Part shown: positions 9,704 through 20,430 of the stretch, piece after piece | Layout of the letters: each line of letters begins with the position of its first letter | Numbering within the stretch: position 1 is the first letter of the stretch | Origin: Sulfurospirillaceae bacterium | Lineage (GTDB): Bacteria > Campylobacterota > Campylobacteria > Campylobacterales > Sulfurospirillaceae | Direction of reading: 5' to 3' | Assembly (NCBI GenBank): GCA_033723415.1 | Contig: JAWVXD010000001.1 | Coordinates: forward strand, 160,001 to 224,000 | DNA: 64,000 nt | Position numbers and translations under genes: made by a program | The notes under the pieces: generated by a model | Told to the model about the DNA's origin: nothing | Database searches by the model: none | Seen by the model: the letters and a program-made list of their open reading frames with translations, nothing else

Positions 9704-10726
9704 ATGAAGTCAATTACTGGAGGATTAAAAATCTTTATTTTTAGTTGTTTGTTATTTTTAACTGCTACAGCTATGCAGGCAGATACTTGGAAGTACGCTT
9801 TGGGAGAAGGACTTAATGATCCTCAAGGATTGTATGCAACAAAATTCAAAGAGGTTATTGAGCAAAACTCTAATCATAAAATAAAGATCTATCCTGTCGG
9901 TACTCTTGGAGAAGAGAGCGATATAATGGAGCAAGTACAAGCAGGTTTGTTACAATTTGTTGGCCAATCGACAGGATATATGGGTGGAACAATACCGGAA
10001 ATGGATGTATTCTTTGTTCCTTACTTGATGCCTGACAATCCAAAACATCTCGGTAAGTTTTTCAAAGATTCTGTAGCTATTAACAAAATGTTCCCAAAAA
10101 TTTTTAGAAAACACAACCTTGAACTCTTGGGTATGTTCCCAGAAGGTGAACAAGCGGTTACAACCATGAAGGAGTTTCATTCACCTGCGGATCTTAAAGG
10201 AAAGAAAATAAGAGTTATGCCAGGTTCTCCTTTGCTAGTCGATACTTATAAAGCTTTTGGGGCTTCTCCTGTTCCTATGAGTTGGGGAGATTTGATTGGT
10301 TCTTTGAAAACTCACATGGTTGATGGACAAGAGAATCCGACTATTTGGATTGCTGCTTATGGACTAGATAAATTGACAAAGGTTTTGACATATATGGGAC
10401 ACAATCAATTTACAGCAACAGCCGTGGCAAATGAGAAGTTTTTCAATAGTTTAAGTGCAAAAGACAAAAAGCTTGTAAAACATGCTTCAGCCGTTGCATT
10501 AAATTATATACTAAAAGAAGCACAAGATTTGGATGCTTTAGGTTTGGGTAGAATTATACGCTCTAATCCAACTTACAAAATCGTAACTTTGACAAAAAAA
10601 GAAAGAGCTGTTTTCAAGAAAAGAGCTTCAAAAGTTGAAGACGCTTTTATAAAAGAAGCCGGTAAAAGCGGAGCTGCTATACTTAAACAAATGAAAATTG
10701 ACCTAAAAAATGCTGAGACAAAATAA
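9704..10726 (+). CDS. teaA: TRAP transporter substrate-binding protein, TeaA/UehA (ectoine/hydroxyectoine)-like
   Basis: Signal peptide; DctP motifs KKIRVM and DGQENP. Segments DIMEQVQAGLLQFV, PYLMP, AINKMFP, MFPEGE closely resemble Halomonas TeaA as I recall it. Upstream of doeA. Confidence 0.85.
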   Translation: MKSITGGLKIFIFSCLLFLTATAMQADTWKYALGEGLNDPQGLYATKFKEVIEQNSNHKIKIYPVGTLGEESDIMEQVQAGLLQFVGQSTGYMGGTIPEMDVFFVPYLMPDNPKHLGKFFKDSVAINKMFPKIFRKHNLELLGMFPEGEQAVTTMKEFHSPADLKGKKIRVMPGSPLLVDTYKAFGASPVPMSWGDLIGSLKTHMVDGQENPTIWIAAYGLDKLTKVLTYMGHNQFTATAVANEKFFNSLSAKDKKLVKHASAVALNYILKEAQDLDALGLGRIIRSNPTYKIVTLTKKERAVFKKRASKVEDAFIKEAGKSGAAILKQMKIDLKNAETK

Positions 10727-10732
10727 TCTCAT

Positions 10733-10761
10733 TCACGATAGCCAGATATTGGCTATCGTGA
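10733..10761 (+). other. Intercistronic perfect 12-bp hairpin between teaA and teaB
   Basis: TCACGATAGCCA-GATAT-TGGCTATCGTGA, no downstream U-tract. Confidence 0.75.
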
Positions 10762-10777
10762 GATAAAAAGGAACTTT

Positions 10778-11356
10778 ATGGATAAAAACTCTAATAGGGC
10801 TAGTATGCATTTTTTTAGTATGCTTGATTTTATAGATTTGCAAATCAGTAGACTCGAGGGATTTATTCTGGCTATAGGTATTATACTGATGGCTGTAAAT
10901 ACTGTTGCAGGAGTTGTTAGCAGATATGTATTTAATGATGCTTTAATATTTACAGATGAGCTAAATAGACTTTTTATAGTTATGGTTACTTTTGCAGGTA
11001 TTAGTTATGCCGCAAGACTAGGAAGACATATTAGGATGTCAGCATTTTATGATGTCCTTCCACAAATTTTTAAAAAAATCTTAATGATATTGATGTGTAT
11101 TTTAACTGCCTATGTTATGTTTAGTTTGTCTTATTTCTCGATCTTATATATCTTAGATATACATCATACGGGTCGAATTTTGCCTTCTTTGGGAATACCA
11201 GCTTATATAATTTATTTGTGGGTACCTATAGGATTTTTTGTTACAGGCATACAATATGCCTTGACTGTGATAAAAAATTTCAGATACAAAGAAGTATATC
11301 TGTCTACTGATGTGTTAGACGGATATTGTGATATAGATCCAACTAGTGTGATATAA
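10778..11356 (+). CDS. teaB: TRAP transporter small permease (DctQ/TeaB-like)
   Basis: About four TM segments; FAGISYAARLGRHIRMSAFYD DctQ motif; position in the operon. Confidence 0.85.
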   Translation: MDKNSNRASMHFFSMLDFIDLQISRLEGFILAIGIILMAVNTVAGVVSRYVFNDALIFTDELNRLFIVMVTFAGISYAARLGRHIRMSAFYDVLPQIFKKILMILMCILTAYVMFSLSYFSILYILDIHHTGRILPSLGIPAYIIYLWVPIGFFVTGIQYALTVIKNFRYKEVYLSTDVLDGYCDIDPTSVI

Positions 11357-11362
11357 GGAATA

Positions 11363-12649
11363 ATGATGGGTATAACAATTTTTACTTTGATGGTCGCTTT
11401 ATTGTTACTTGGTTTTCCTATGATGGTTTCTTTATTGGCAGGCTCAATGGTAGGTTTTTATGAGTTGTTTGGCGATTTTCATAGAATGCAATTTATGATA
11501 CAGCAAATGATGGGTGGAATACGACCTGCATCACTTATCGCAGTGCCTATGTTTATATTGGCGGCAGATATCATGACCAGAGGTCATTCAGCAGAGAGAC
11601 TTATAGATTTGGTCATGTCATTTGTCGGACATATAAAGGGTGGTTTAGCAGTAACAACTTCAGCTGCATGTGCGGTATTCGGTGCCGTGTCCGGTTCTAC
11701 ACAAGCAACTGTTGTCGCCGTAGGTTCTCCACTAAGACCGAAATTACAAGAAGGTGGATATAAAGATTCATTTATCTTGGCATTGATCATAAATTCAAGC
11801 GATATTGCATTTTTAATTCCTCCTAGTATCGGTATGATTATTTATGGAGTCGTTTCTAAAACCTCTATACCAGAGCTTTTTATATCTGGAATTGGACCTG
11901 GACTTCTAATTCTCTTAATGTTCTCTGTATACAGTATTGTTTATGCTCGCATAAATAATATTCCGACTCAACCTAGAAGTAGTTGGAAGGACAGAGCACT
12001 TGCATTTTATAAGGCTTTGCTACCACTTGGATTTCCAGTTATTATTATCGGTGGGATTTTTACCGGTATATTTAGTCCAACTGAAGCTGCCGCGATAAGC
12101 GTTGTTTATGCGATTATCTTAGAAATGTTCATATTTAGGACCATGAGCTTAAAACACTTTTATGAAACTGCAAAATCAACAGGTTTGGTAACGGCGATAG
12201 TTTTTATACTTGTTGCTGCAGGTTCCTCTTTTGCCTGGGTTTTATCTTTTGCTCAGATTCCTCAAGCTGTTTTATCTAGCATCGGAATTCAAGATATGAC
12301 ACCGCTTGGTGTACTTGGAGTGATAAACGTAGCCTTTTTTGTAGGTTGTATGTTTGTTGATCCAATAGTGCTTATCTTGATATTGGTACCGATTTTTGCT
12401 CCTGTAGTGAAATCTGCAGGATTAGACCCTGTTTTAGTTGGTACGGTGATAACATTACAAGCTGCTATAGGTTCTGCAACACCTCCTTTCGGTTGTGATA
12501 TATTTACTGCTATTGCTGTTTTTAAAAGACCTTATTTTGAAGTTATCAAAGGTATCCCTCCGTTTACCTTTATGCTTTTGTGTGTTGCTGCACTGGTGAC
12601 ATTTTTCCCTGGAATTGCATTATTCTTGAGAGATGTAGCTTTTAGTTAG
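11363..12649 (+). CDS. teaC: TRAP transporter large permease (DctM/TeaC-like)
   Basis: LIAVPMFILAA, FGAVSGST, LIPPSIGMIIYG, SPTEAAA, SATPPFGCDIF. Confidence 0.88.
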   Translation: MMGITIFTLMVALLLLGFPMMVSLLAGSMVGFYELFGDFHRMQFMIQQMMGGIRPASLIAVPMFILAADIMTRGHSAERLIDLVMSFVGHIKGGLAVTTSAACAVFGAVSGSTQATVVAVGSPLRPKLQEGGYKDSFILALIINSSDIAFLIPPSIGMIIYGVVSKTSIPELFISGIGPGLLILLMFSVYSIVYARINNIPTQPRSSWKDRALAFYKALLPLGFPVIIIGGIFTGIFSPTEAAAISVVYAIILEMFIFRTMSLKHFYETAKSTGLVTAIVFILVAAGSSFAWVLSFAQIPQAVLSSIGIQDMTPLGVLGVINVAFFVGCMFVDPIVLILILVPIFAPVVKSAGLDPVLVGTVITLQAAIGSATPPFGCDIFTAIAVFKRPYFEVIKGIPPFTFMLLCVAALVTFFPGIALFLRDVAFS

Positions 12650-12893
12650 ATATGTTGTAGTCCATAGTGGATTATTTTATCTTGAAGGAGTTTGATAAAG
12701 ACAAAAATTCAAAAATGTAGATTTTTGTTTTAGACATGCGTTAAAGTCATCAACGACTGTATTGTGTCGTCTTTTCAAACTCCTTTTTTATATGCGGACT
12801 GCTAAGTCCGGCATGACGGTCTTGACTTTATAGATTGTTGAATTTTTAACAAATTATAAATTATTTTAAAACAAATTTTACCAAGGAGATAAA

Positions 12894-14051
12894 ATGATTC
12901 CAAGATATATGTCTGCCATGTGTCTCATCGGACATGGCGGTGTAGAAAAATTGCTCTATCGAGAGGACGTTCGTATTCGAGAACTAAATCCTCACGAGCT
13001 ACTAGTAAAAGTTACGGCGACTGCAAAAAACAACACTGACAGAAAGGTGAGAGAAGGATTGTACCCGACAAAAGACAATAATGACGTTGCATCGTTTGAT
13101 ATGGGCGGAACATCTTCTTTGCAGTTTCCGAGAATTCAAGGAGCAGACGTAGTCGGTAATATAGTTGCAGTAGGCTCTGATATAGATTCAAGAAAAATAG
13201 GTGAAAGAGGTCTTTTAGATTTTAATATATATGCAACCGACAGTGAAGATATCAATTTGGCTCCGGATTATTACGGACATGGTGCAGATGGAGGTTATGC
13301 CGAGTACATAATAGTTCCTAGTAGTCAGTTTTATTTAATTAAAAATCCAGAACTTGCAGATGCAGAGTTGGCCTCTATGGGTATGTGCTCATATCAGACT
13401 GCATTACATATGCTTAATATCGCCGGTGTAAAATCAGGAGAAAAAGTTTTAGTAACAGGTGCAAGCGGCGGAGTCGGTACTGCACTGATACAGCTATGTA
13501 AAATCATCGGAGCAATTCCTTATGCTTTAAGTTCTTTAGATAAAGAAGAGATGCTTTTATCTTTGGGAGCTCAAAAAGTAATCGATAGATCAAAAATCGA
13601 GGATGTCGCGCAAAATATACTTAAAGCAACAAATGGGGAAAATATAGATGCCGTTATGGATTTACTGGGAGGTGAGTATACTAGTAGGCTTATAGATACT
13701 ATGATCGTAGACATGAATAAAAGAGATACTTACCCTAGATTGTCTATTGCCGGTGCAAGCGGCGGTAACGTGAGTGAGATCTTATGGACCAAGATATATC
13801 TTTATCAAGTGCAGATATTCGGCGTCTCCCACGGAACTAGGGTAGAGGCTAAGCAGTTGATAAGATGGATACAAGACAAAAAGTTGATACCTGTTTTACA
13901 CGGCACTTTTAAATTATCAGATTTACATAAAGCTGAAGAGTATTTTGTTTCAAGAGATAACAATTTCTTGGGAAAAATCGTGATTGTGCCAGATTCTGAA
14001 TGGAATAGGCATGGCGAAAAATTTAAAGTGAGAAAATTCTATGAAAACTAA
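12894..14051 (+). CDS. MDR-superfamily NAD(P)-dependent oxidoreductase, zinc-less (quinone/enoyl reductase-like)
   Basis: GroES-like N-domain (VKVTATAKNNTD, QGADVVG instead of GHE), Rossmann VLVTGASGGVG, C-terminal GKIVI; SD AAGGAG. Confidence 0.85.
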   Translation: MIPRYMSAMCLIGHGGVEKLLYREDVRIRELNPHELLVKVTATAKNNTDRKVREGLYPTKDNNDVASFDMGGTSSLQFPRIQGADVVGNIVAVGSDIDSRKIGERGLLDFNIYATDSEDINLAPDYYGHGADGGYAEYIIVPSSQFYLIKNPELADAELASMGMCSYQTALHMLNIAGVKSGEKVLVTGASGGVGTALIQLCKIIGAIPYALSSLDKEEMLLSLGAQKVIDRSKIEDVAQNILKATNGENIDAVMDLLGGEYTSRLIDTMIVDMNKRDTYPRLSIAGASGGNVSEILWTKIYLYQVQIFGVSHGTRVEAKQLIRWIQDKKLIPVLHGTFKLSDLHKAEEYFVSRDNNFLGKIVIVPDSEWNRHGEKFKVRKFYEN

Positions 14052-15069
14052 GCATGTTATACAAATCATCGATACGCATGCCGGAGGCGATGTCAGCAGA
14101 ATCGTAATAGGAGGAATAAAGGATATACCAGCAGACACAGTCAGAGGGAAGATGGAATATTTGTCTCAATACGCGGATGGTTTAAGGGTAGCTTTGCTAA
14201 GTGAACCTTATGGCATACCCGAAATGTCTGTAGATTTGATTGTCCCTCCTAGCAATAAAGAGGCTAAGGCAGGTTATATCATTATGGAGGAGATGGGTTA
14301 TCCGATATATTCCGGTTCAAATACGATTTGTACGGCTACTGCCTTATTGGAGAGTGGTCTAGTGGAAAAAAAGGAAGGATTTAACTATTTTAAATTAGAA
14401 TCTCCCGCTAGTTTGGTAGAGATAGAAGCTTTTGTAAAAGATGGAATTGTAGAGTCTGTTACATGTGAAGGATTACCTAGCTATATAGCCGAATACAAAA
14501 ATAAAATATATGTTCCAAATTATGGAGAAGTAACATATTCAATCGCTTATAGCGGCGGATATTATGCTCTTGTTGATGCAAAAGAACTTGGTTTTAATCT
14601 TGTCAAAGATGAAGAAAATGCACTTCGTCAGTGTGCGTATGCAATCGTAGAGGAAATAAATAAAACTAAAATATACAATCATTATGATTTAGGATTTGTC
14701 GGGAAGTTGCCGTTTTTGCATTTTATGGGAGAAGTTGAGAAAATAATCGAAGGAGAATACAGATCAAGGTCTACTACATACGTTCATCCTGGAGTTATAT
14801 GCCGAAGCACTACCGGCACAGGTACTTCGGCAAGATTGGCTTTTTTGAACTATGAGGGGAAAATCAAAGAAGGAGACAAGCTAGAAACTGTTTCTTTGAG
14901 AAATACTAAGTTTGTCGGAGAGTTTTGTTTTGTTGAAAAGAAATTTGGTTTTGATATCGTTAAAAATAAAATATTCGGTAGAAGCTATATCTTAGCAAAA
15001 TCAGATATTTTTATTGATTTAACTGATCCTATTCTAAATTGTGACACGATCTCAATGATTACTTATTAA
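14041..15069 (+). CDS. Proline racemase family protein with Ser/Thr catalytic dyad (probable dehydratase/epimerase)
   Basis: IDTHAGGDVSRIV, LLSEPYG, PIYSGSNTIC, YSGGYY, CRSTTGTGTSARL; overlaps the MDR stop. Confidence 0.88.
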   Translation: MKTKHVIQIIDTHAGGDVSRIVIGGIKDIPADTVRGKMEYLSQYADGLRVALLSEPYGIPEMSVDLIVPPSNKEAKAGYIIMEEMGYPIYSGSNTICTATALLESGLVEKKEGFNYFKLESPASLVEIEAFVKDGIVESVTCEGLPSYIAEYKNKIYVPNYGEVTYSIAYSGGYYALVDAKELGFNLVKDEENALRQCAYAIVEEINKTKIYNHYDLGFVGKLPFLHFMGEVEKIIEGEYRSRSTTYVHPGVICRSTTGTGTSARLAFLNYEGKIKEGDKLETVSLRNTKFVGEFCFVEKKFGFDIVKNKIFGRSYILAKSDIFIDLTDPILNCDTISMITY

Positions 15070-15081
15070 GCAAAAAAACTA

Positions 15082-15112
15082 TTGACAAAGTCTATGAAAA
15101 AACGATAGACTT
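15082..15112 (+). promoter_or_regulatory. sigma70-type promoter overlapped by an 8-bp palindrome
   Basis: TTGACA (15082-15087), 18 nt, TAGACT (15106-15111); AAGTCTAT-N9-ATAGACTT (15088-15112). Confidence 0.55.
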
Positions 15113-15140
15113 ATTTATCTTTTTCGAAAGGAGCTGTACC

Positions 15141-15299
15141 ATGTATTTCAAAGTATCTCTTGTTAATTTTGTTTACGTCAGTATAGCAGTTTTGAAAAAT
15201 TTTATATATCCTTCAATCAGTTATAAAATTATAAAGCCGATTGATAGAATCTTCGCCCAATACAAAGCTTTAGCCATCAAGCCCAGACAAACTCACTAA
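15141..15299 (+). CDS. Unannotated 52-aa small ORF / putative leader peptide
   Basis: AAAGGAG at 15127-15133, ATG at 15141: MYFKVSLVNFVYVSIAVLKNFIYPSISYKIIKPIDRIFAQYKALAIKPRQTH*. Below the ORF-track cut-off. Confidence 0.5.
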   Translation: MYFKVSLVNFVYVSIAVLKNFIYPSISYKIIKPIDRIFAQYKALAIKPRQTH

Positions 15300-15420
15300 A
15301 TTTAAATATTCTTCACAAACAATCTAAATTGTTCATATGCTATGCATATTATGAATTATTTAAGCTAGTGAGTACTTAAACAAATATTTTAAAACACTAT
15401 ATATTTAAGTTAAGGAGAAA

Positions 15421-16662
15421 ATGATGGCAAACGAGATGGAATTATTTGAAAAGTATGAATCAGAAATAAGAGCTTACTGTAGAGCAGTGCCTACGGTTTT
15501 TAAATCATCGCAAAACGCAATAATGATAGATGAAAACAATAAAGAGTATGTGGATTTTTTTGCTGGGGCAGGAGTATTAAATTTCGGCCACAACAATCCA
15601 AAGATGAAAACTGCAATCATAGATTTTATAAATAGAAATGGCGTAGCACATAGTTTAGATATGTTTACCGATGTCAAAAGAGATTTTATAAAAACTTTTG
15701 TTGATACAATTCTTAAACCGAGAAACATGGAGTATAAACTACAATTTACCGGTCCTACAGGCACAAATGCCGTAGAAGCTGCACTTAAATTGGCGAGAAG
15801 AACAACAGGCAGAGTCAATGTAGTGGCTTTCAACAGAGGATTTCACGGTATGACTTTGGGTGCGCTTGCATGTACCGCGAATCAAGCTTTTAGGGGAGCA
15901 TCCGGAGTTCCTTTAAATAATGTTATTAGAGATACGTTTAATGACATGCAAGCATTGAGCAACCTGAGGCAAAAATTTGAAGACAGGGGTTCTGGACTTA
16001 TGCCGCCGGCTGCTTTTTTAGTTGAATCAGTTCAAGCCGAGGGTGGTGTGAGAGTAGGGCAGAAAGAATGGCTTCAAGGTGTTCAAAAACTTGCAAAAGA
16101 CTTAGGATCACTTTTTATAATAGATGATATTCAAGCAGGAAGCGGAAGATGTGGAACCTACTTTAGTTTTGAAGATCTGGATTTAGATCCAGATATTATA
16201 GTTCTTGCAAAAGGATTGGGTGGATTTGGTACGCCGATAGGTATGCTTTTGAATAAACCCAATATTGATTCCAATTGGAAACCGGGTGAACATACCGGCA
16301 CATTCAGAGGACAAGGTATCTCTTTTGTTGCAGGTAAAATAGGAGTTGAGTACTTTAAGAACAATGATCTTTTAGATGGAGTGAAAGAAAAAGGGAGCTA
16401 TATTAGGAGTAGATTAGATGCACTTCAAGAAATACATAAAGATTTAAAAATAAGACAAAAAGGCATGATGCTGGCACTAGAATTTTCAAATGCACAAATC
16501 GCCAAAGAGGTTGCAACGAAATGTTTTGAAAGAGGACTTATTATAGGTGCTTGCAGTACCGGTGAAATTCTTAAGTTTATTCCTCCATTGACTATAGAGA
16601 AAGATGTTCTTCAAAAAGGCATGGATACTTTTGTTGATGTCTGTTTAGAAGTTCTGGGTTAA
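15421..16662 (+). CDS. Class III PLP aminotransferase, EctB-like diaminobutyrate transaminase (probably catabolic, DoeD role)
   Basis: FEKYESEIRAYCR, DFFAGAGVLNFGHN, QFTGPTGTNAVEAALKLAR, FHGMTLG, IDDIQAG, LAKG, PGEHTGTFRG. Confidence 0.85.
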   Translation: MMANEMELFEKYESEIRAYCRAVPTVFKSSQNAIMIDENNKEYVDFFAGAGVLNFGHNNPKMKTAIIDFINRNGVAHSLDMFTDVKRDFIKTFVDTILKPRNMEYKLQFTGPTGTNAVEAALKLARRTTGRVNVVAFNRGFHGMTLGALACTANQAFRGASGVPLNNVIRDTFNDMQALSNLRQKFEDRGSGLMPPAAFLVESVQAEGGVRVGQKEWLQGVQKLAKDLGSLFIIDDIQAGSGRCGTYFSFEDLDLDPDIIVLAKGLGGFGTPIGMLLNKPNIDSNWKPGEHTGTFRGQGISFVAGKIGVEYFKNNDLLDGVKEKGSYIRSRLDALQEIHKDLKIRQKGMMLALEFSNAQIAKEVATKCFERGLIIGACSTGEILKFIPPLTIEKDVLQKGMDTFVDVCLEVLG

Positions 16663-16672
16663 GGGGGTTGGT

Positions 16673-18064
16673 ATGTCATATAGTAAAACATCATTTGTAT
16701 CTATAAATCCAACTACAGAAGAAATCGTTTGTGAAGTACCAATGGATACTAAGCAGGAGGTTCAGGCAAAACTAGAGCTTTCTTTAAAAACTTATAACGA
16801 ATATTGGAAAGACACCACATTTGAGCAAAGAGCTGATATTTTAAATAAAGTCGCAGCAGAGATGAGAGCCAATTTAGATGAATATGCAATTCCTATGACT
16901 TTGGAGATGGGAAAGCCTATAAAAGAGGCAAGAGCTGAGGTAGAAAAATCAGCGTGGTGTGCAGAGCATTATGCAAAATATGCGAAAAGCTATTTAAAAC
17001 AAGACAATATAGAGTCGGATGCAACTTTAAGTTACGTCCAATATCTTCCTCTGGGTCCGACTCTAGGGATATTGCCTTGGAATGCACCTTTTTGGCTTGC
17101 GTTTAGATATATTGCTCCTGCACTCATGGCAGGCAATACATGTGTCATGAAACATGACTCTCACACGCCAAAATGCGCAGAAGTTATCGTTCAAGCATTT
17201 ACCAAAGCAGGCGCCCATGAAGGGATATTACAAAATTTGACTATCGCCAGTTCTGATGTAGAATCAGTCATGAGACATCCGATAATCACTGCTATATCAT
17301 TTACAGGTTCTGTCGGTACAGGGTCAAAAATAGGTGCGATTGCCGGTTCTGAGATAAAACCTTGTGTTCTAGAACTTGGCGGTTCAGATCCTGCTATAGT
17401 GCTAAGTGATGCGGATTTGGAATCGGCTGCTGATATTATATCCTTGTCTCGTATGATAAATGCAGGACAGTCATGTATAGCAGCGAAAAGAATCATCGTT
17501 GAGGAACCAATCTATGATGAATTTATTGAAATGCTTAAAGTAAGATTTGAAAGATTAAAAATGGGTGATCCGATGGATGAATCCACTGATATCGGTCCTA
17601 TTGCTAGAAAAGAGTTAGTCCATGAGATGCATCAACAAGTAAAAAGATCCATAGATGCCGGCGCAAAGTTGGTGCTTGGAGGCAAAGAGTACACGGGCAA
17701 AGGATATTTTTATCCGGCTACACTCTTAGTTGATGTCAATCCTGGTATGGTGGTTAGTTGTCAAGAGACTTTTGGGCCTATAGGTGTGGTTATCAAAGCA
17801 AAAAATGCCGAAGAAGCTTTAAAGATTGCCAACGATACGGAGTTTGGGCTTGGAGCTTCAGTTTGGACTGATGTTAAAAGAGGCGAAGAGATAGCAAGAA
17901 AAATAGTATCTGGACAAGTTTCGGTTAACGGTATAGTGAAAACAGATCCTAGATTACCTAGTGGCGGTGTTAAAAAATCGGGCTTAGGTAGAGAATTGGG
18001 TCCTCATGGAATCAAAATGTTCGTAAATGCTCAACAAATTTGGATCGGTCCTAAAAAGGGCTAG
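16673..18064 (+). CDS. NAD(P)-dependent semialdehyde dehydrogenase (GabD/Sad-like; DoeC role)
   Basis: ILPWNAP, FTGS, LELGGSDP, AGQSCIA, ETFGP, GGVKKSGLGRE. The role is inferred from context. Confidence 0.85.
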   Translation: MSYSKTSFVSINPTTEEIVCEVPMDTKQEVQAKLELSLKTYNEYWKDTTFEQRADILNKVAAEMRANLDEYAIPMTLEMGKPIKEARAEVEKSAWCAEHYAKYAKSYLKQDNIESDATLSYVQYLPLGPTLGILPWNAPFWLAFRYIAPALMAGNTCVMKHDSHTPKCAEVIVQAFTKAGAHEGILQNLTIASSDVESVMRHPIITAISFTGSVGTGSKIGAIAGSEIKPCVLELGGSDPAIVLSDADLESAADIISLSRMINAGQSCIAAKRIIVEEPIYDEFIEMLKVRFERLKMGDPMDESTDIGPIARKELVHEMHQQVKRSIDAGAKLVLGGKEYTGKGYFYPATLLVDVNPGMVVSCQETFGPIGVVIKAKNAEEALKIANDTEFGLGASVWTDVKRGEEIARKIVSGQVSVNGIVKTDPRLPSGGVKKSGLGRELGPHGIKMFVNAQQIWIGPKKG

Positions 18065-18087
18065 TTTTTTTAAGGAGAAAACAAAAG

Positions 18088-19266
18088 ATGAAACTAGCTT
18101 TTTCAAAGAAAGAGTATATATCAAGAGTTAAAAGAGTTCAGCGCTTAATGAAAAAAAGGGATATTGACATACTTGTTTCCACAGATCCAGGAAATATGAA
18201 CTGGTTGACCGGCTATGACGGCTGGTCTTTTTATGTTCATCAGGGTGTTATTGTCTCTGTTAATGATGATGAACCTATTTGGTTTGGAAGAGACATGGAC
18301 AGAAGCGCTGCACTTTTAAAGTGTTATATGCAAGAAGACAATATGATTGCATATCCGGAAGAATATGTTCAGAATGTTGACAAGCATCCTATGGAATGGA
18401 TCGCAAAAAATATTTTTTACAAAAAAGGATGGCAAAAAGTTGTAATAGCCACTGAGATGGATACATATTATTACACTGCCGCTGCCCATCTAACCCTTGT
18501 TTCAAATCTTTGGAAAGCCAGATTTGTAGATAGTCAGAATTTAGTAAATTGGGCCAGAGGCATAAAATCTGATAAAGAGATTGAGTATATGAAGATCGCC
18601 GGAAAAATAACATCTAAAATCCATCAAAGGATATTAGATGTTGCCAGAGTCGGTATTCCAAAACATTTTGTTGTCTCCCAGATATATGAAACAGCTATTG
18701 CAGGAGTAGATGGTCTAAGTGGAGATTATCCGTCAATCGTGCCTTTACTACCTTCAGGGAAAGAGGCATCAGCATCTCATATTACATGGGATGAGAGATC
18801 TTTTAAAGCTCATGAAGGAACATTTTTTGAGATGTCAGGATGCTACAAAAGATACCATGCTCCAATGGCTAGAACGATTTTTATGGGTAAACCTGACCAA
18901 AAATTTGTAAATGCAGAAAAAGCAGTGTTAGAGGCTATAGATGCAGGGCTAGAACAGGCAAAACCCGGAAATAGGACGTGTGATATCGCCAATGCTGTGG
19001 ATAAAATCATGACAAAATATGGTATAGATAGACACGGGGCTAGATGCGGGTATCCAATAGGCGTTAGTTATCCTCCTGATTGGGGAGAGAGAACTTGCAG
19101 TTTAAGATCTTCTGATTATACTGTTTTAAAACCAGGTATGACATTCCACTTTATGCCTGGAATTTGGCAAGATGATTGGGGTATTGAGATAACAGAGAGT
19201 ATTTTGATAACAAAAGACGGAGTTGAAACTCTATGTGATTTCCCCAGAAAACTTTTTGTAAAATAA
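18088..19266 (+). CDS. doeA: Ectoine hydrolase (M24 family, DoeA/EutD)
   Basis: DPGNMNWLTGYDGWSFYVHQ, GDYPSIVPLLPSG, SYPPDWGERT, MTFHFMPG, characteristic of EutD/DoeA. Confidence 0.92.
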   Translation: MKLAFSKKEYISRVKRVQRLMKKRDIDILVSTDPGNMNWLTGYDGWSFYVHQGVIVSVNDDEPIWFGRDMDRSAALLKCYMQEDNMIAYPEEYVQNVDKHPMEWIAKNIFYKKGWQKVVIATEMDTYYYTAAAHLTLVSNLWKARFVDSQNLVNWARGIKSDKEIEYMKIAGKITSKIHQRILDVARVGIPKHFVVSQIYETAIAGVDGLSGDYPSIVPLLPSGKEASASHITWDERSFKAHEGTFFEMSGCYKRYHAPMARTIFMGKPDQKFVNAEKAVLEAIDAGLEQAKPGNRTCDIANAVDKIMTKYGIDRHGARCGYPIGVSYPPDWGERTCSLRSSDYTVLKPGMTFHFMPGIWQDDWGIEITESILITKDGVETLCDFPRKLFVK

Positions 19267-19275
19267 GGAGTGTAT

Positions 19276-20430
19276 ATGCCAATCAAATGGTCAGACGCAG
19301 TTAAAATTGCAACAGATTTCAGGCACGAACTTCATGCCGAACCGGAGTTGACATGGCAAGAAGTAGAAACTTCAAAAAAAATCAGAGCAATGCTTGATCA
19401 CTATAATATAAAGTGGAAAAGTTTTGCAAAGACAGGGACCGTAGGATATCTAGGGAAAAATATCAAAGGCAAACACATAGCACTTAGAGCAGATATTGAT
19501 GCCTTAGACGTACAAGAGACTACAGGTCTAAAATATGCTTCCGTGAAAAAAAATCATATGCATGCGTGTGGACATGATGGGCATACCGCCACTCTTATGG
19601 CAGTAGCTATCTTTTTGAGTGAAAATGAAACTAAACTCTCAAATCAAGTATCTTTAGTTTTTCAACCTGCAGAAGAAGGCGGGCATGGTGCAAAAAAGAT
19701 GATTGAAGAGGGATGTTTAGATGGAGTAGACTTTATATATGGCTGGCACAATTGGCCGGCCATTAAATTTGGACAGGCACTTTGTCCAGATGGAGCAGTT
19801 ATGGCAGGCAATGGGACTTTCACCATATCTTTAGAAGGAGAAGGCGGTCATTCCTCCCAACCTGAAATGTGTAAAGATCCTGTTTTGGCAGGTTCAGCCA
19901 TAGTTGTAGCACTACAACAGATTGTAAGTAGGCAAATAGGTCCACAAGATGCTGCAGTGGTTTCAGTTACATCATTTGAAGCCCCGAGTGGACTGACCGC
20001 TATTCCGTCTTTTGCTAAATTAGCCGGAAGTATCAGAGTCACAAGTTCTGAGATGAAAGAAGTTATAGCCGACTCTATTAAGAATATAGCAAAAAATACG
20101 GCAGCAGCATATGGAGTAAATGCAATAGTAGAATTTAAAAATAGATATAACGCTACTATAAACCATAAAGAAGAGGCAGAAAATTACAGAGAGATTTTAA
20201 AAAATAATTTGGGAGAGAATTGGCAAAGTCAGGTCAAGACTCCCATTATGGCATCAGAAGATTTTAGCTACTATTTAGAAAAGATTCCAGGAGCCTTTGC
20301 CCTAATAGGAAGTGATGATGGAGAAGAAAAGCACTGTAAACCTTGCCACAATGCTTCTTACGATTTCAATGATAAACTCATTGATGTTGCAGGGAAAATT
20401 TTAATGGAGTGCGCCGGGTATAGATTTTAA
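19276..20430 (+). CDS. M20D amidohydrolase, probable N-acetyl-diaminobutyrate deacetylase (DoeB2-type)
   Basis: RHELHAEPEL, LRADIDAL, MHACGHDGH, FQPAEEG, WHN, SEDF, CHN. ATG 19276 follows AAGGAG; directly after doeA. Confidence 0.8.
   Translation: MPIKWSDAVKIATDFRHELHAEPELTWQEVETSKKIRAMLDHYNIKWKSFAKTGTVGYLGKNIKGKHIALRADIDALDVQETTGLKYASVKKNHMHACGHDGHTATLMAVAIFLSENETKLSNQVSLVFQPAEEGGHGAKKMIEEGCLDGVDFIYGWHNWPAIKFGQALCPDGAVMAGNGTFTISLEGEGGHSSQPEMCKDPVLAGSAIVVALQQIVSRQIGPQDAAVVSVTSFEAPSGLTAIPSFAKLAGSIRVTSSEMKEVIADSIKNIAKNTAAAYGVNAIVEFKNRYNATINHKEEAENYREILKNNLGENWQSQVKTPIMASEDFSYYLEKIPGAFALIGSDDGEEKHCKPCHNASYDFNDKLIDVAGKILMECAGYRF

Follow-up and report, generated by a model that had tools for sequence, protein, structure and literature searches.

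The window analysed here, a stretch of 64,000 nucleotides from a Sulfurospirillaceae bacterium, contains two forward-strand genes, overlapping by 11 nt in the open reading frame list, that encode a zinc-free medium-chain dehydrogenase/reductase (MDR), probably of the quinone oxidoreductase- or enoyl reductase-like kind (12894–14051, 385 aa; ADH_N PF08240 and ADH_zinc_N PF00107) and a proline-racemase-fold enzyme with a Ser91/Thr258 dyad (14041–15069, 342 aa; Pro_racemase PF05544). A first-pass annotation had placed the pair between a TeaABC-like transporter and doeA-containing catabolic genes, a position confirmed by open reading frames and by Pfam, NCBIfam and PDB matches. It had also proposed that the pair acts on hydroxyectoine, or on ring-opened hydroxy-N-acetyl-diaminobutyrate, as a dehydratase and a reductase, replacing EutABC. 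We predict with moderate confidence that the racemase-fold enzyme dehydrates intact 5-hydroxyectoine and that the MDR enzyme reduces the product to ectoine.

Upstream of the pair lie genes for a transporter of the TRAP (tripartite ATP-independent periplasmic) type, also on the forward strand: a solute-binding protein of the UehA/TeaA type (9704–10726; PF03480), probably for ectoine and hydroxyectoine uptake, a DctQ small permease (10778–11356; PF04290) and a DctM large permease (11363–12649; PF06808, with TIGR00786 above cut-off). The best PDB matches of the solute-binding protein are 3FXB, 3GYY and 2VPN (E from 2e-97 for 3FXB to 4e-84, the next match being at 6e-38), which we take to be UehA and TeaA, the search itself naming only TRAP or periplasmic binding proteins. 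Downstream, on the same strand, follow DoeD, the catabolic copy of an EctB-like diaminobutyrate (DABA) transaminase (15421–16662; NF006733, 557 bits, above cut-off), which is 46% identical to the biosynthetic ectB product of contig C3; DoeC, an aldehyde dehydrogenase (16673–18064; PF00171), putatively acting on aspartate semialdehyde as judged from context and 50–62% identical to the dehydrogenases of doeB2-doeD-doeA2-doeC clusters; the ectoine hydrolase DoeA (18088–19266), which scores 573 bits with TIGR02993, 40 bits and so just below the cut-off of 613, and is 54% identical to P. yeei DoeA; and DoeB2, an M20-type N-acetyl-DABA deacetylase (19270–20430; NF038260, 608 bits, cut-off 550). With DoeA, a deacetylase, a DABA transaminase, a semialdehyde dehydrogenase and an ectoine transporter, the region is an ectoine catabolic (doe/eut) cluster. 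The pair is set off by 244 nt on the 5′ side of the MDR gene and 351 nt on the 3′ side of the racemase gene, and no gene remnants were found in either gap. These gaps are compatible with separate transcription, which the pair may have; a promoter and terminator scan found 51 sites where 47.4 were expected, no more than chance, and leaves operon structure unsupported.

The host genome (2.43 Mb, 34% GC, rated 100% complete) also carries an ectA-ectB-ectC-ectD-ask biosynthetic cluster on contig C3 (L090:4121–8773), in which the ectD-like gene scores 313 bits against a cut-off of 336.5. The reported lack of eutA (TIGR02990), eutB (TIGR02991) and eutC in the block holds, and extends to the entire genome. 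No tblastn match to EutA or EutC was obtained there, and the only match to EutB is a 403-aa IlvA-like gene (38–40%); the sole ornithine cyclodeaminase (OCD) gene adjoins arginase, and the sole Asp/Glu racemase match gives no score with TIGR02990. The racemase subfamily occurs in only 1 of 150 related genomes searched, and the cluster is thus rare among kin.

The two enzymes

An AlphaFold model of the racemase-fold protein (pLDDT 89) is closest to structure 4K7G (TM score 0.91, 31% identity), that of B9K4G4, a trans-3-hydroxy-L-proline dehydratase in which Ser90 is catalytic and Thr256 is not (Zhao et al. 2014, PMC4113996). Ser91, Asn94 and Thr258 of the window protein match Ser90, Asn93 and Thr256 of that enzyme; the Thr noted earlier at the second catalytic position is therefore Thr258, and the first position holds Ser rather than Cys. 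This dyad does not fit the Cys/Cys (or Ser/Cys) dyad of proline racemases and 4-hydroxyproline epimerases. Cys254, four residues before the second catalytic residue, stands where the family has an Asp that binds the ring nitrogen of proline (Asp232 in Q4KGU2), a substitution pointing to a ring other than that of proline, and the family motif HxxGE reads HAGGD. Among 240 homologues, the YSGSN motif is present in all and CRS in 235, the remaining five being unmatched by the pattern, whereas the solved relatives compared have DRS at this site. Scores miss every NCBIfam cut-off (NF047722, 229 bits against 550; NF045511, 133 against 540). Because of the replaced Asp, the HAGGD motif, the conserved CRS and YSGSN motifs and the missed cut-offs, the protein is, on sequence grounds, assigned to a subfamily of its own with two clades. 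Clade I comprises Halomonadaceae, Marinobacter and Campylobacterota, and clade II comprises halotolerant actinobacteria, Hahella, Natronospirillum and some Marinobacter. Both are far in the tree from generic alphaproteobacterial members of the family; a 38% relative in S. americanum sits on a long branch of uncertain placement. A search of 216 alphaproteobacterial genomes found no member of the subfamily; the best match there (295 bits) and all others are generic DRSPC types. No viral copies were found. In one genome (G236, L095:9397–10460) the racemase-fold gene is broken into two reading frames beside an intact MDR gene.

The partner has the MDR fold and a GASGGVG sequence (GxxGxxG motif), and it too lies under all NCBIfam cut-offs. 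Zinc-dependent MDR alcohol dehydrogenases use Cys, His and Cys as catalytic ligands and have a four-Cys structural lobe. The window protein lacks that lobe and has Asn46 and Gly-Ala/Thr-Asp (for Gly-His-Glu) at the catalytic-zinc positions, with only Cys165 kept. The second Rossmann strand is not followed by an acidic residue, so that NADPH is the probable cofactor; Lys217 and Arg232 are invariant. The closest structure is 4J6F of Sinorhizobium meliloti 1021 (42%), after which the fold matches are a mix of quinone oxidoreductases, crotonyl-CoA reductases and alcohol dehydrogenases. A gene whose product is a 42% match and also lacks the zinc lobe lies directly after atf in the S. meliloti pSymB eut cluster, and the gene in the same position in the P. 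yeei eut cluster is 60% identical to the window MDR. Homologues also follow atf in R. bangladeshense and in five Rhizobiales-like genomes; all these clusters contain eutABC, and, unlike the window gene, the S. meliloti gene has no racemase partner. Two eutA clusters (G547, G681) were without an MDR gene, with only nine candidates scored per genome, so that misses are possible. Halomonas elongata has 70% MDR homologues. We take the locus tag of the S. meliloti gene to be SMb20422, a tag that was not found in the papers searched. The S. meliloti oxidoreductase, labelled adh, is described as ectoine-inducible and its role is listed as undefined (PMC5924519); as judged from sequence, the window MDR is its orthologue. 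A second, more distant MDR paralogue (36%) lies on contig C9 of the host genome (L089:6702–15087), with no racemase gene there; its neighbours encode an old-yellow-enzyme flavin oxidoreductase, a 2-hydroxyacid dehydrogenase, a class I/II aminotransferase, a YjgF/RidA protein and an NMT1-type ABC transporter.

Conservation and genomic context of the pair

Loci of the racemase subfamily were gathered by alignment-based search of genome contigs, and 176 were surveyed: the best 80 of 415 GTDB matches, 16 genome-sample loci and the best 80 of 314 metagenome matches. The MDR gene lies directly upstream of the racemase gene at 80 of 80 GTDB loci, 14 of 16 genome-sample loci and 69 of the 73 metagenome loci with room upstream, that is, at 163 of 169 informative loci. 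In a set of 241 Pseudomonadales genomes, 17 contain the racemase subfamily, and an MDR match better than 1e-90 is found in exactly these 17. Trees of the two proteins (a quick tree for the MDR) split into the same two clades, and each racemase clade is paired with the MDRs of its own clade, I or II; in the exceptions, G173 and G372, racemase and MDR are of different clades and lie at separate loci. The pair thus constitutes a module that is both conserved and mobile.

The first-pass annotation had named linkage to doeA or teaABC and mutual exclusion with eutABC as points to check. Linkage recurs in both clades and in three phyla but at six of the 176 loci only, and eutB is not excluded. The linkages are of four kinds. 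The first, in the order tea-usp-pair-doe, is found in two metagenome-assembled genomes of Campylobacterota (L001, L004) that form one lineage with the window; in these relatives usp, which the window lacks, precedes the MDR gene, doeB2 directly follows the pair, and DctM is about 140 aa longer at the N terminus than that of the window. The second, teaABC-usp-MDR-racemase in a gammaproteobacterium (G316), is independent of the window because its pair belongs to clade II. In the third, the pair is head-to-head with an ectD gene scoring over the cut-off (L144 and L147; 228 nt and about 0.4 kb). In the fourth, doeD-doeA2-doeC lies 3.3 kb from the pair in a locus of 70% GC (L143), where a betaine/choline-type ABC transporter is directly downstream. 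The full ectoine uptake and catabolism cluster (window 9704–20430; L001, L004) is here seen in likely Campylobacterota, which the portions covered of two surveys of ectoine catabolism do not name (PMC13188858, PMC5924519).

Across the 241 Pseudomonadales genomes, the pair occurs in 15 of 46 with ectD and in 2 of 195 without it, and the latter two (G196, G336) have doeA. All 17 carriers therefore have ectD or doeA, and the pair is found in 17 of the 76 genomes with either gene against 0 of the 165 others. Within the 44 genomes that carry DoeA or DoeA2, it is present in 8 of 14 with ectD and in 2 of 30 without; for these counts, gene context confirms DoeA2 in 20 of its 30 genomes, the other ten are classed by score alone, and G296 was dropped. 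Seven of the 17 carriers have ectD and no DoeA or DoeA2: five of them have only 26–28% M24 homologues without doe neighbours, and three genomes (G294, G325, G155) gave no DoeA match at 1e-30. Weak M24 matches in carriers (E 1e-32 to 1e-46) were not counted as DoeA, as they have no doeB or doeD neighbours of the window's type. One further genome, G154, has an ectD-like gene. The genes, folds, dyad, linkage and co-occurrence are in this way established.

These distributions bear on two alternatives in which hydroxyectoine is not the substrate. The pair could be a trans-3-hydroxy-L-proline dehydratase with a new kind of pyrroline-2-carboxylate reductase, either clearing a side product of EctD or consuming hydroxyproline. 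The closest fold and dyad are those of such a dehydratase, and H. elongata EctD makes trans-3-hydroxyproline (PMC6890836), which alone would account for the tracking of ectD. We nevertheless consider this unlikely: the match to NF047722 is far below its cut-off, the ring-nitrogen Asp is replaced, and hydroxyproline-pathway neighbours are rare, with dihydrodipicolinate synthase at 0, D-amino-acid oxidase-like genes at 3 and OCD-like genes at 3 of the 176 loci, none of them adjacent (MLD2 was not searched). It also leaves unexplained why the pair was inserted between doe genes and a transporter for ectoine, the ectD-negative, doeA-positive carriers G196 and G336 and the ectoine induction of the S. 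meliloti MDR. Alternatively, the substrate could be an unrelated small molecule of saline habitats, with the ectoine links arising from chance insertion and shared ancestry of halophiles. The 170 loci without an ectoine gene within the fetched flanks, whose neighbours are lineage-specific (for example, CorA and acyl-CoA synthetase), fit such a substrate, as do the betaine/choline-type transporter in L143 and the occurrence of the 38% racemase relative in a betaine-transporter cluster of S. americanum. Four kinds of ectoine linkage across clades and phyla, the lack of the pair in all 165 genomes without ectD and doeA, and an ectoine-induced MDR orthologue make this the least probable of the explanations considered.

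Proposed conversion of hydroxyectoine to ectoine

Hydroxyectoine is a cyclic amino acid with its hydroxyl beta to the carboxylate. EctD converts proline to trans-3-hydroxyproline (PMC6890836, citing Hara 2019), and therefore hydroxyectoine should share the trans geometry of the leaving group. In the proposed first step, Ser91 would take the C4 (alpha) proton and the 5-hydroxyl would leave as water, as in the Ser/Thr trans-3-hydroxyproline dehydratases, giving 2-methyl-1,6-dihydropyrimidine-4-carboxylate or a tautomer; the named compound is the intermediate proposed for EutB (PMC5924519). In the second, the zinc-free MDR would use NAD(P)H to reduce this product to ectoine, which in the host genome would pass to DoeA, DoeB2, DoeD and DoeC. 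EutB-type enzymes, which depend on pyridoxal phosphate (PLP), need a free amino group that is missing in the intact ring; racemase-fold enzymes do not. A conjugated, enoate-like product would suit a zinc-free MDR better than the OCD- or MLD2-family imine reductases that accompany hydroxyproline dehydratases. The pair shares fold, dyad and dehydratase-then-reductase layout with the B9K4G4 system but differs from it in the MDR partner, which stands in place of an OCD- or MLD2-family pyrroline-2-carboxylate reductase, and in neighbourhoods that are ectoine-related or neither that nor of hydroxyproline catabolism. Linkage, ectD co-occurrence and the dyad support the hydroxyectoine dehydratase and reductase named in the first-pass annotation; the function itself stays a prediction, as do substrate, product, direction, cofactor and expression.

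The pair might instead act after ring opening, deoxygenating hydroxy-N-acetyl-DABA or hydroxy-DABA through an imine or enamide and subsequent reduction to feed DoeD and DoeC. EutD and EutE make hydroxy-α-N-acetyl-DABA and hydroxy-DABA, and DABA is seen in hydroxyectoine-grown Ruegeria pomeroyi (PMC8739950); the MDR gene follows atf in alphaproteobacterial clusters, and the window cluster has both doeA and doeB2. This is improbable given that seven of the 17 carriers have ectD without DoeA or DoeA2 and that the pair stands head-to-head with ectD and after teaABC-usp. Action on the intact ring is favoured by the carriers that lack DoeA and by the linkage to ectD or to the transporter alone. Where DoeA is missing, the module would do no more than alter the hydroxyectoine:ectoine ratio or recover hydroxyectoine that has been imported. 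More broadly, we tentatively suggest that the widespread, PLP-free pair acts as a ‘reverse EctD’ and closes an ectoine–hydroxyectoine cycle in Halomonadaceae, Marinobacter, halotolerant actinobacteria and some Campylobacterota. If so, cells could tune their solute ratio without degrading the ring, production strains of Halomonas would contain a hidden sink for hydroxyectoine, 5-hydroxyl removal would have its first defined chemistry, and the orphan rhizobial adh would gain a function.

Several observations weigh against the dehydration–reduction route on intact hydroxyectoine. DoeA reportedly acts on hydroxyectoine directly, opening its ring (PMC8739950), and a ring-intact step is therefore not required for catabolism. 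No ectoine gene lies near the pair at 170 of the 176 loci, and the two head-to-head ectD loci possibly represent one event, their racemases being 78% and their EctD proteins 71% identical. Most ectD-positive Pseudomonadales genomes (31 of 46) lack the pair, and one genome (G061, 83% complete) has the pair and no ectD match. Fisher p values for co-occurrence (2e-10, 6e-4) overstate the association, as the carriers are mostly Halomonadaceae and Marinobacter and kin are not independent. MDR genes that have no racemase partner are found in eutABC clusters, and G626 and Nitratireductor hold the MDR gene by itself, which is explained only as redundancy. The pair and a true eutB coexist in G151, G273 and G152, and G292, G300 and G395 have ectD and DoeA2 with neither the pair nor eutB.

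Relation to EutABC and to known ectoine catabolism

In the window, the pair occupies the same transporter–doe slot as EutABC, which in R. pomeroyi and S. meliloti is likewise proposed to convert hydroxyectoine to ectoine, through the same dihydropyrimidine intermediate (PMC5924519). Unlike EutABC, it consists of two PLP-free enzymes instead of three proteins, is non-homologous to them, is usually free-standing and can coexist with eutB. The earlier idea of a replacement for EutABC agrees with the lack of the three genes in the host genome and with the counts among 15 genomes with TIGR02993-type DoeA (7 of the 9 that lack eutB hold the pair, against 2 of the 6 in which a true eutB is present; p 0.14), but not with the three genomes in which pair and eutB coexist nor with the MDR genes of eutABC clusters. 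As a cluster-bound substitute it fits less well, since most loci lie away from ectoine genes and seven carrier genomes have no DoeA. Most likely, the pair is a free-standing alternative route, parallel to EutABC, that was recruited into the tea/doe cluster in the window.

The pair might also take hydroxyectoine as its substrate and stand in for EutA, with the racemase-fold enzyme epimerizing C4 and the MDR oxidizing or reducing at C5 to ready the molecule for a further enzyme. EutA scores above cut-off in none of 29 genomes tested, carriers included, and the racemase subfamily is missing from the alphaproteobacterial set, where eutA does occur (3 of 216 genomes); moreover, Ser-containing members of the family can epimerize (PMC4113996). 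The same source describes Thr at the second position as non-catalytic and a marker of dehydratases, most carriers have no eutB or eutC to complete the conversion, and gammaproteobacteria that do not carry the pair lack eutA equally, so that this explanation is very unlikely. A role for the racemase gene as a specific replacement of EutA found no support, as eutA is gone from all 29 genomes with or without the pair and the eutA clusters of G547 and G681 show no MDR. EutB and EutC (L085, L088) presumably belong to the same families as the β-hydroxyaspartate dehydratase and iminosuccinate reductase BhcB and BhcD. Because of this kinship, EutABC may work at a late stage, with hydroxy-DABA or hydroxyaspartate as its substrate, which would explain its coexistence with the pair. 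In the literature, the activities of EutABC are given as unknown (PMC8739950) or as no more than a proposal (PMC8739950, PMC13188858).

Removal of the 5-hydroxyl of hydroxyectoine is an unsettled step in the literature, for which the pair offers two soluble, cofactor-simple candidate enzymes. Many ectoine degraders lack eutA or eutBC (PMC13188858), and H. elongata has eutBC and no eutA (PMC3187862). The 2026 survey required EutB for inclusion and reports that eutBC is lacking in every Vreelandella and in a third of Halomonas (PMC13188858); Vreelandella is frequent among carriers of the pair. When doeA was deleted in H. salifodinae, part of the hydroxyectoine loss remained (PMC11142988). We found no paper containing both ‘proline racemase’ and ‘ectoine’ in a search that left subscription papers, theses and patents outside, so that a prior description is possible; the main text of the 2026 survey, in the portion covered, mentions no racemase, oxidoreductase or Campylobacter (PMC13188858), and the supplements of three papers gave no match to the pair. 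If the prediction is correct, the proline racemase superfamily gains a new class of substrate, the ectoine-induced S. meliloti oxidoreductase of solved structure is assigned, and hydroxyectoine-producing Halomonas acquires a knockout target.

The doe genes of the window resemble doeBDAC of Methylomicrobium alcaliphilum 20Z (PMC7192451) in their M20-type DoeB2, EctB-like DoeD and lack of a regulator in the block, but differ in the TIGR02993-type DoeA, the TRAP transporter and the two-gene module; only 2 of 30 genomes of the DoeA2 type carry the pair. The window DoeA is 76–79% identical to the stand-alone doeA products of five gammaproteobacteria (L120–L124), which have none of doeB, doeC and doeD in their vicinity; in four of these genomes the two-gene module lies elsewhere. 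Among Pseudomonadales, a doeB2-doeD-doeA2-doeC cluster of the methylotroph type is common, being present at 19 of 20 fetched loci with weak TIGR02993 matches (170–210 bits; L261, L263–L278, L280–L282) and, by score, in about 30 of 241 genomes. Finally, in Salinisphaera aquimarina (L110:5389–15207), Ehu-like ABC genes and TeaBC-like TRAP permeases surround a divergent DoeA-like M24 gene (27%; NF038259, 160 bits, below cut-off), whose product is possibly a third type of ectoine hydrolase.

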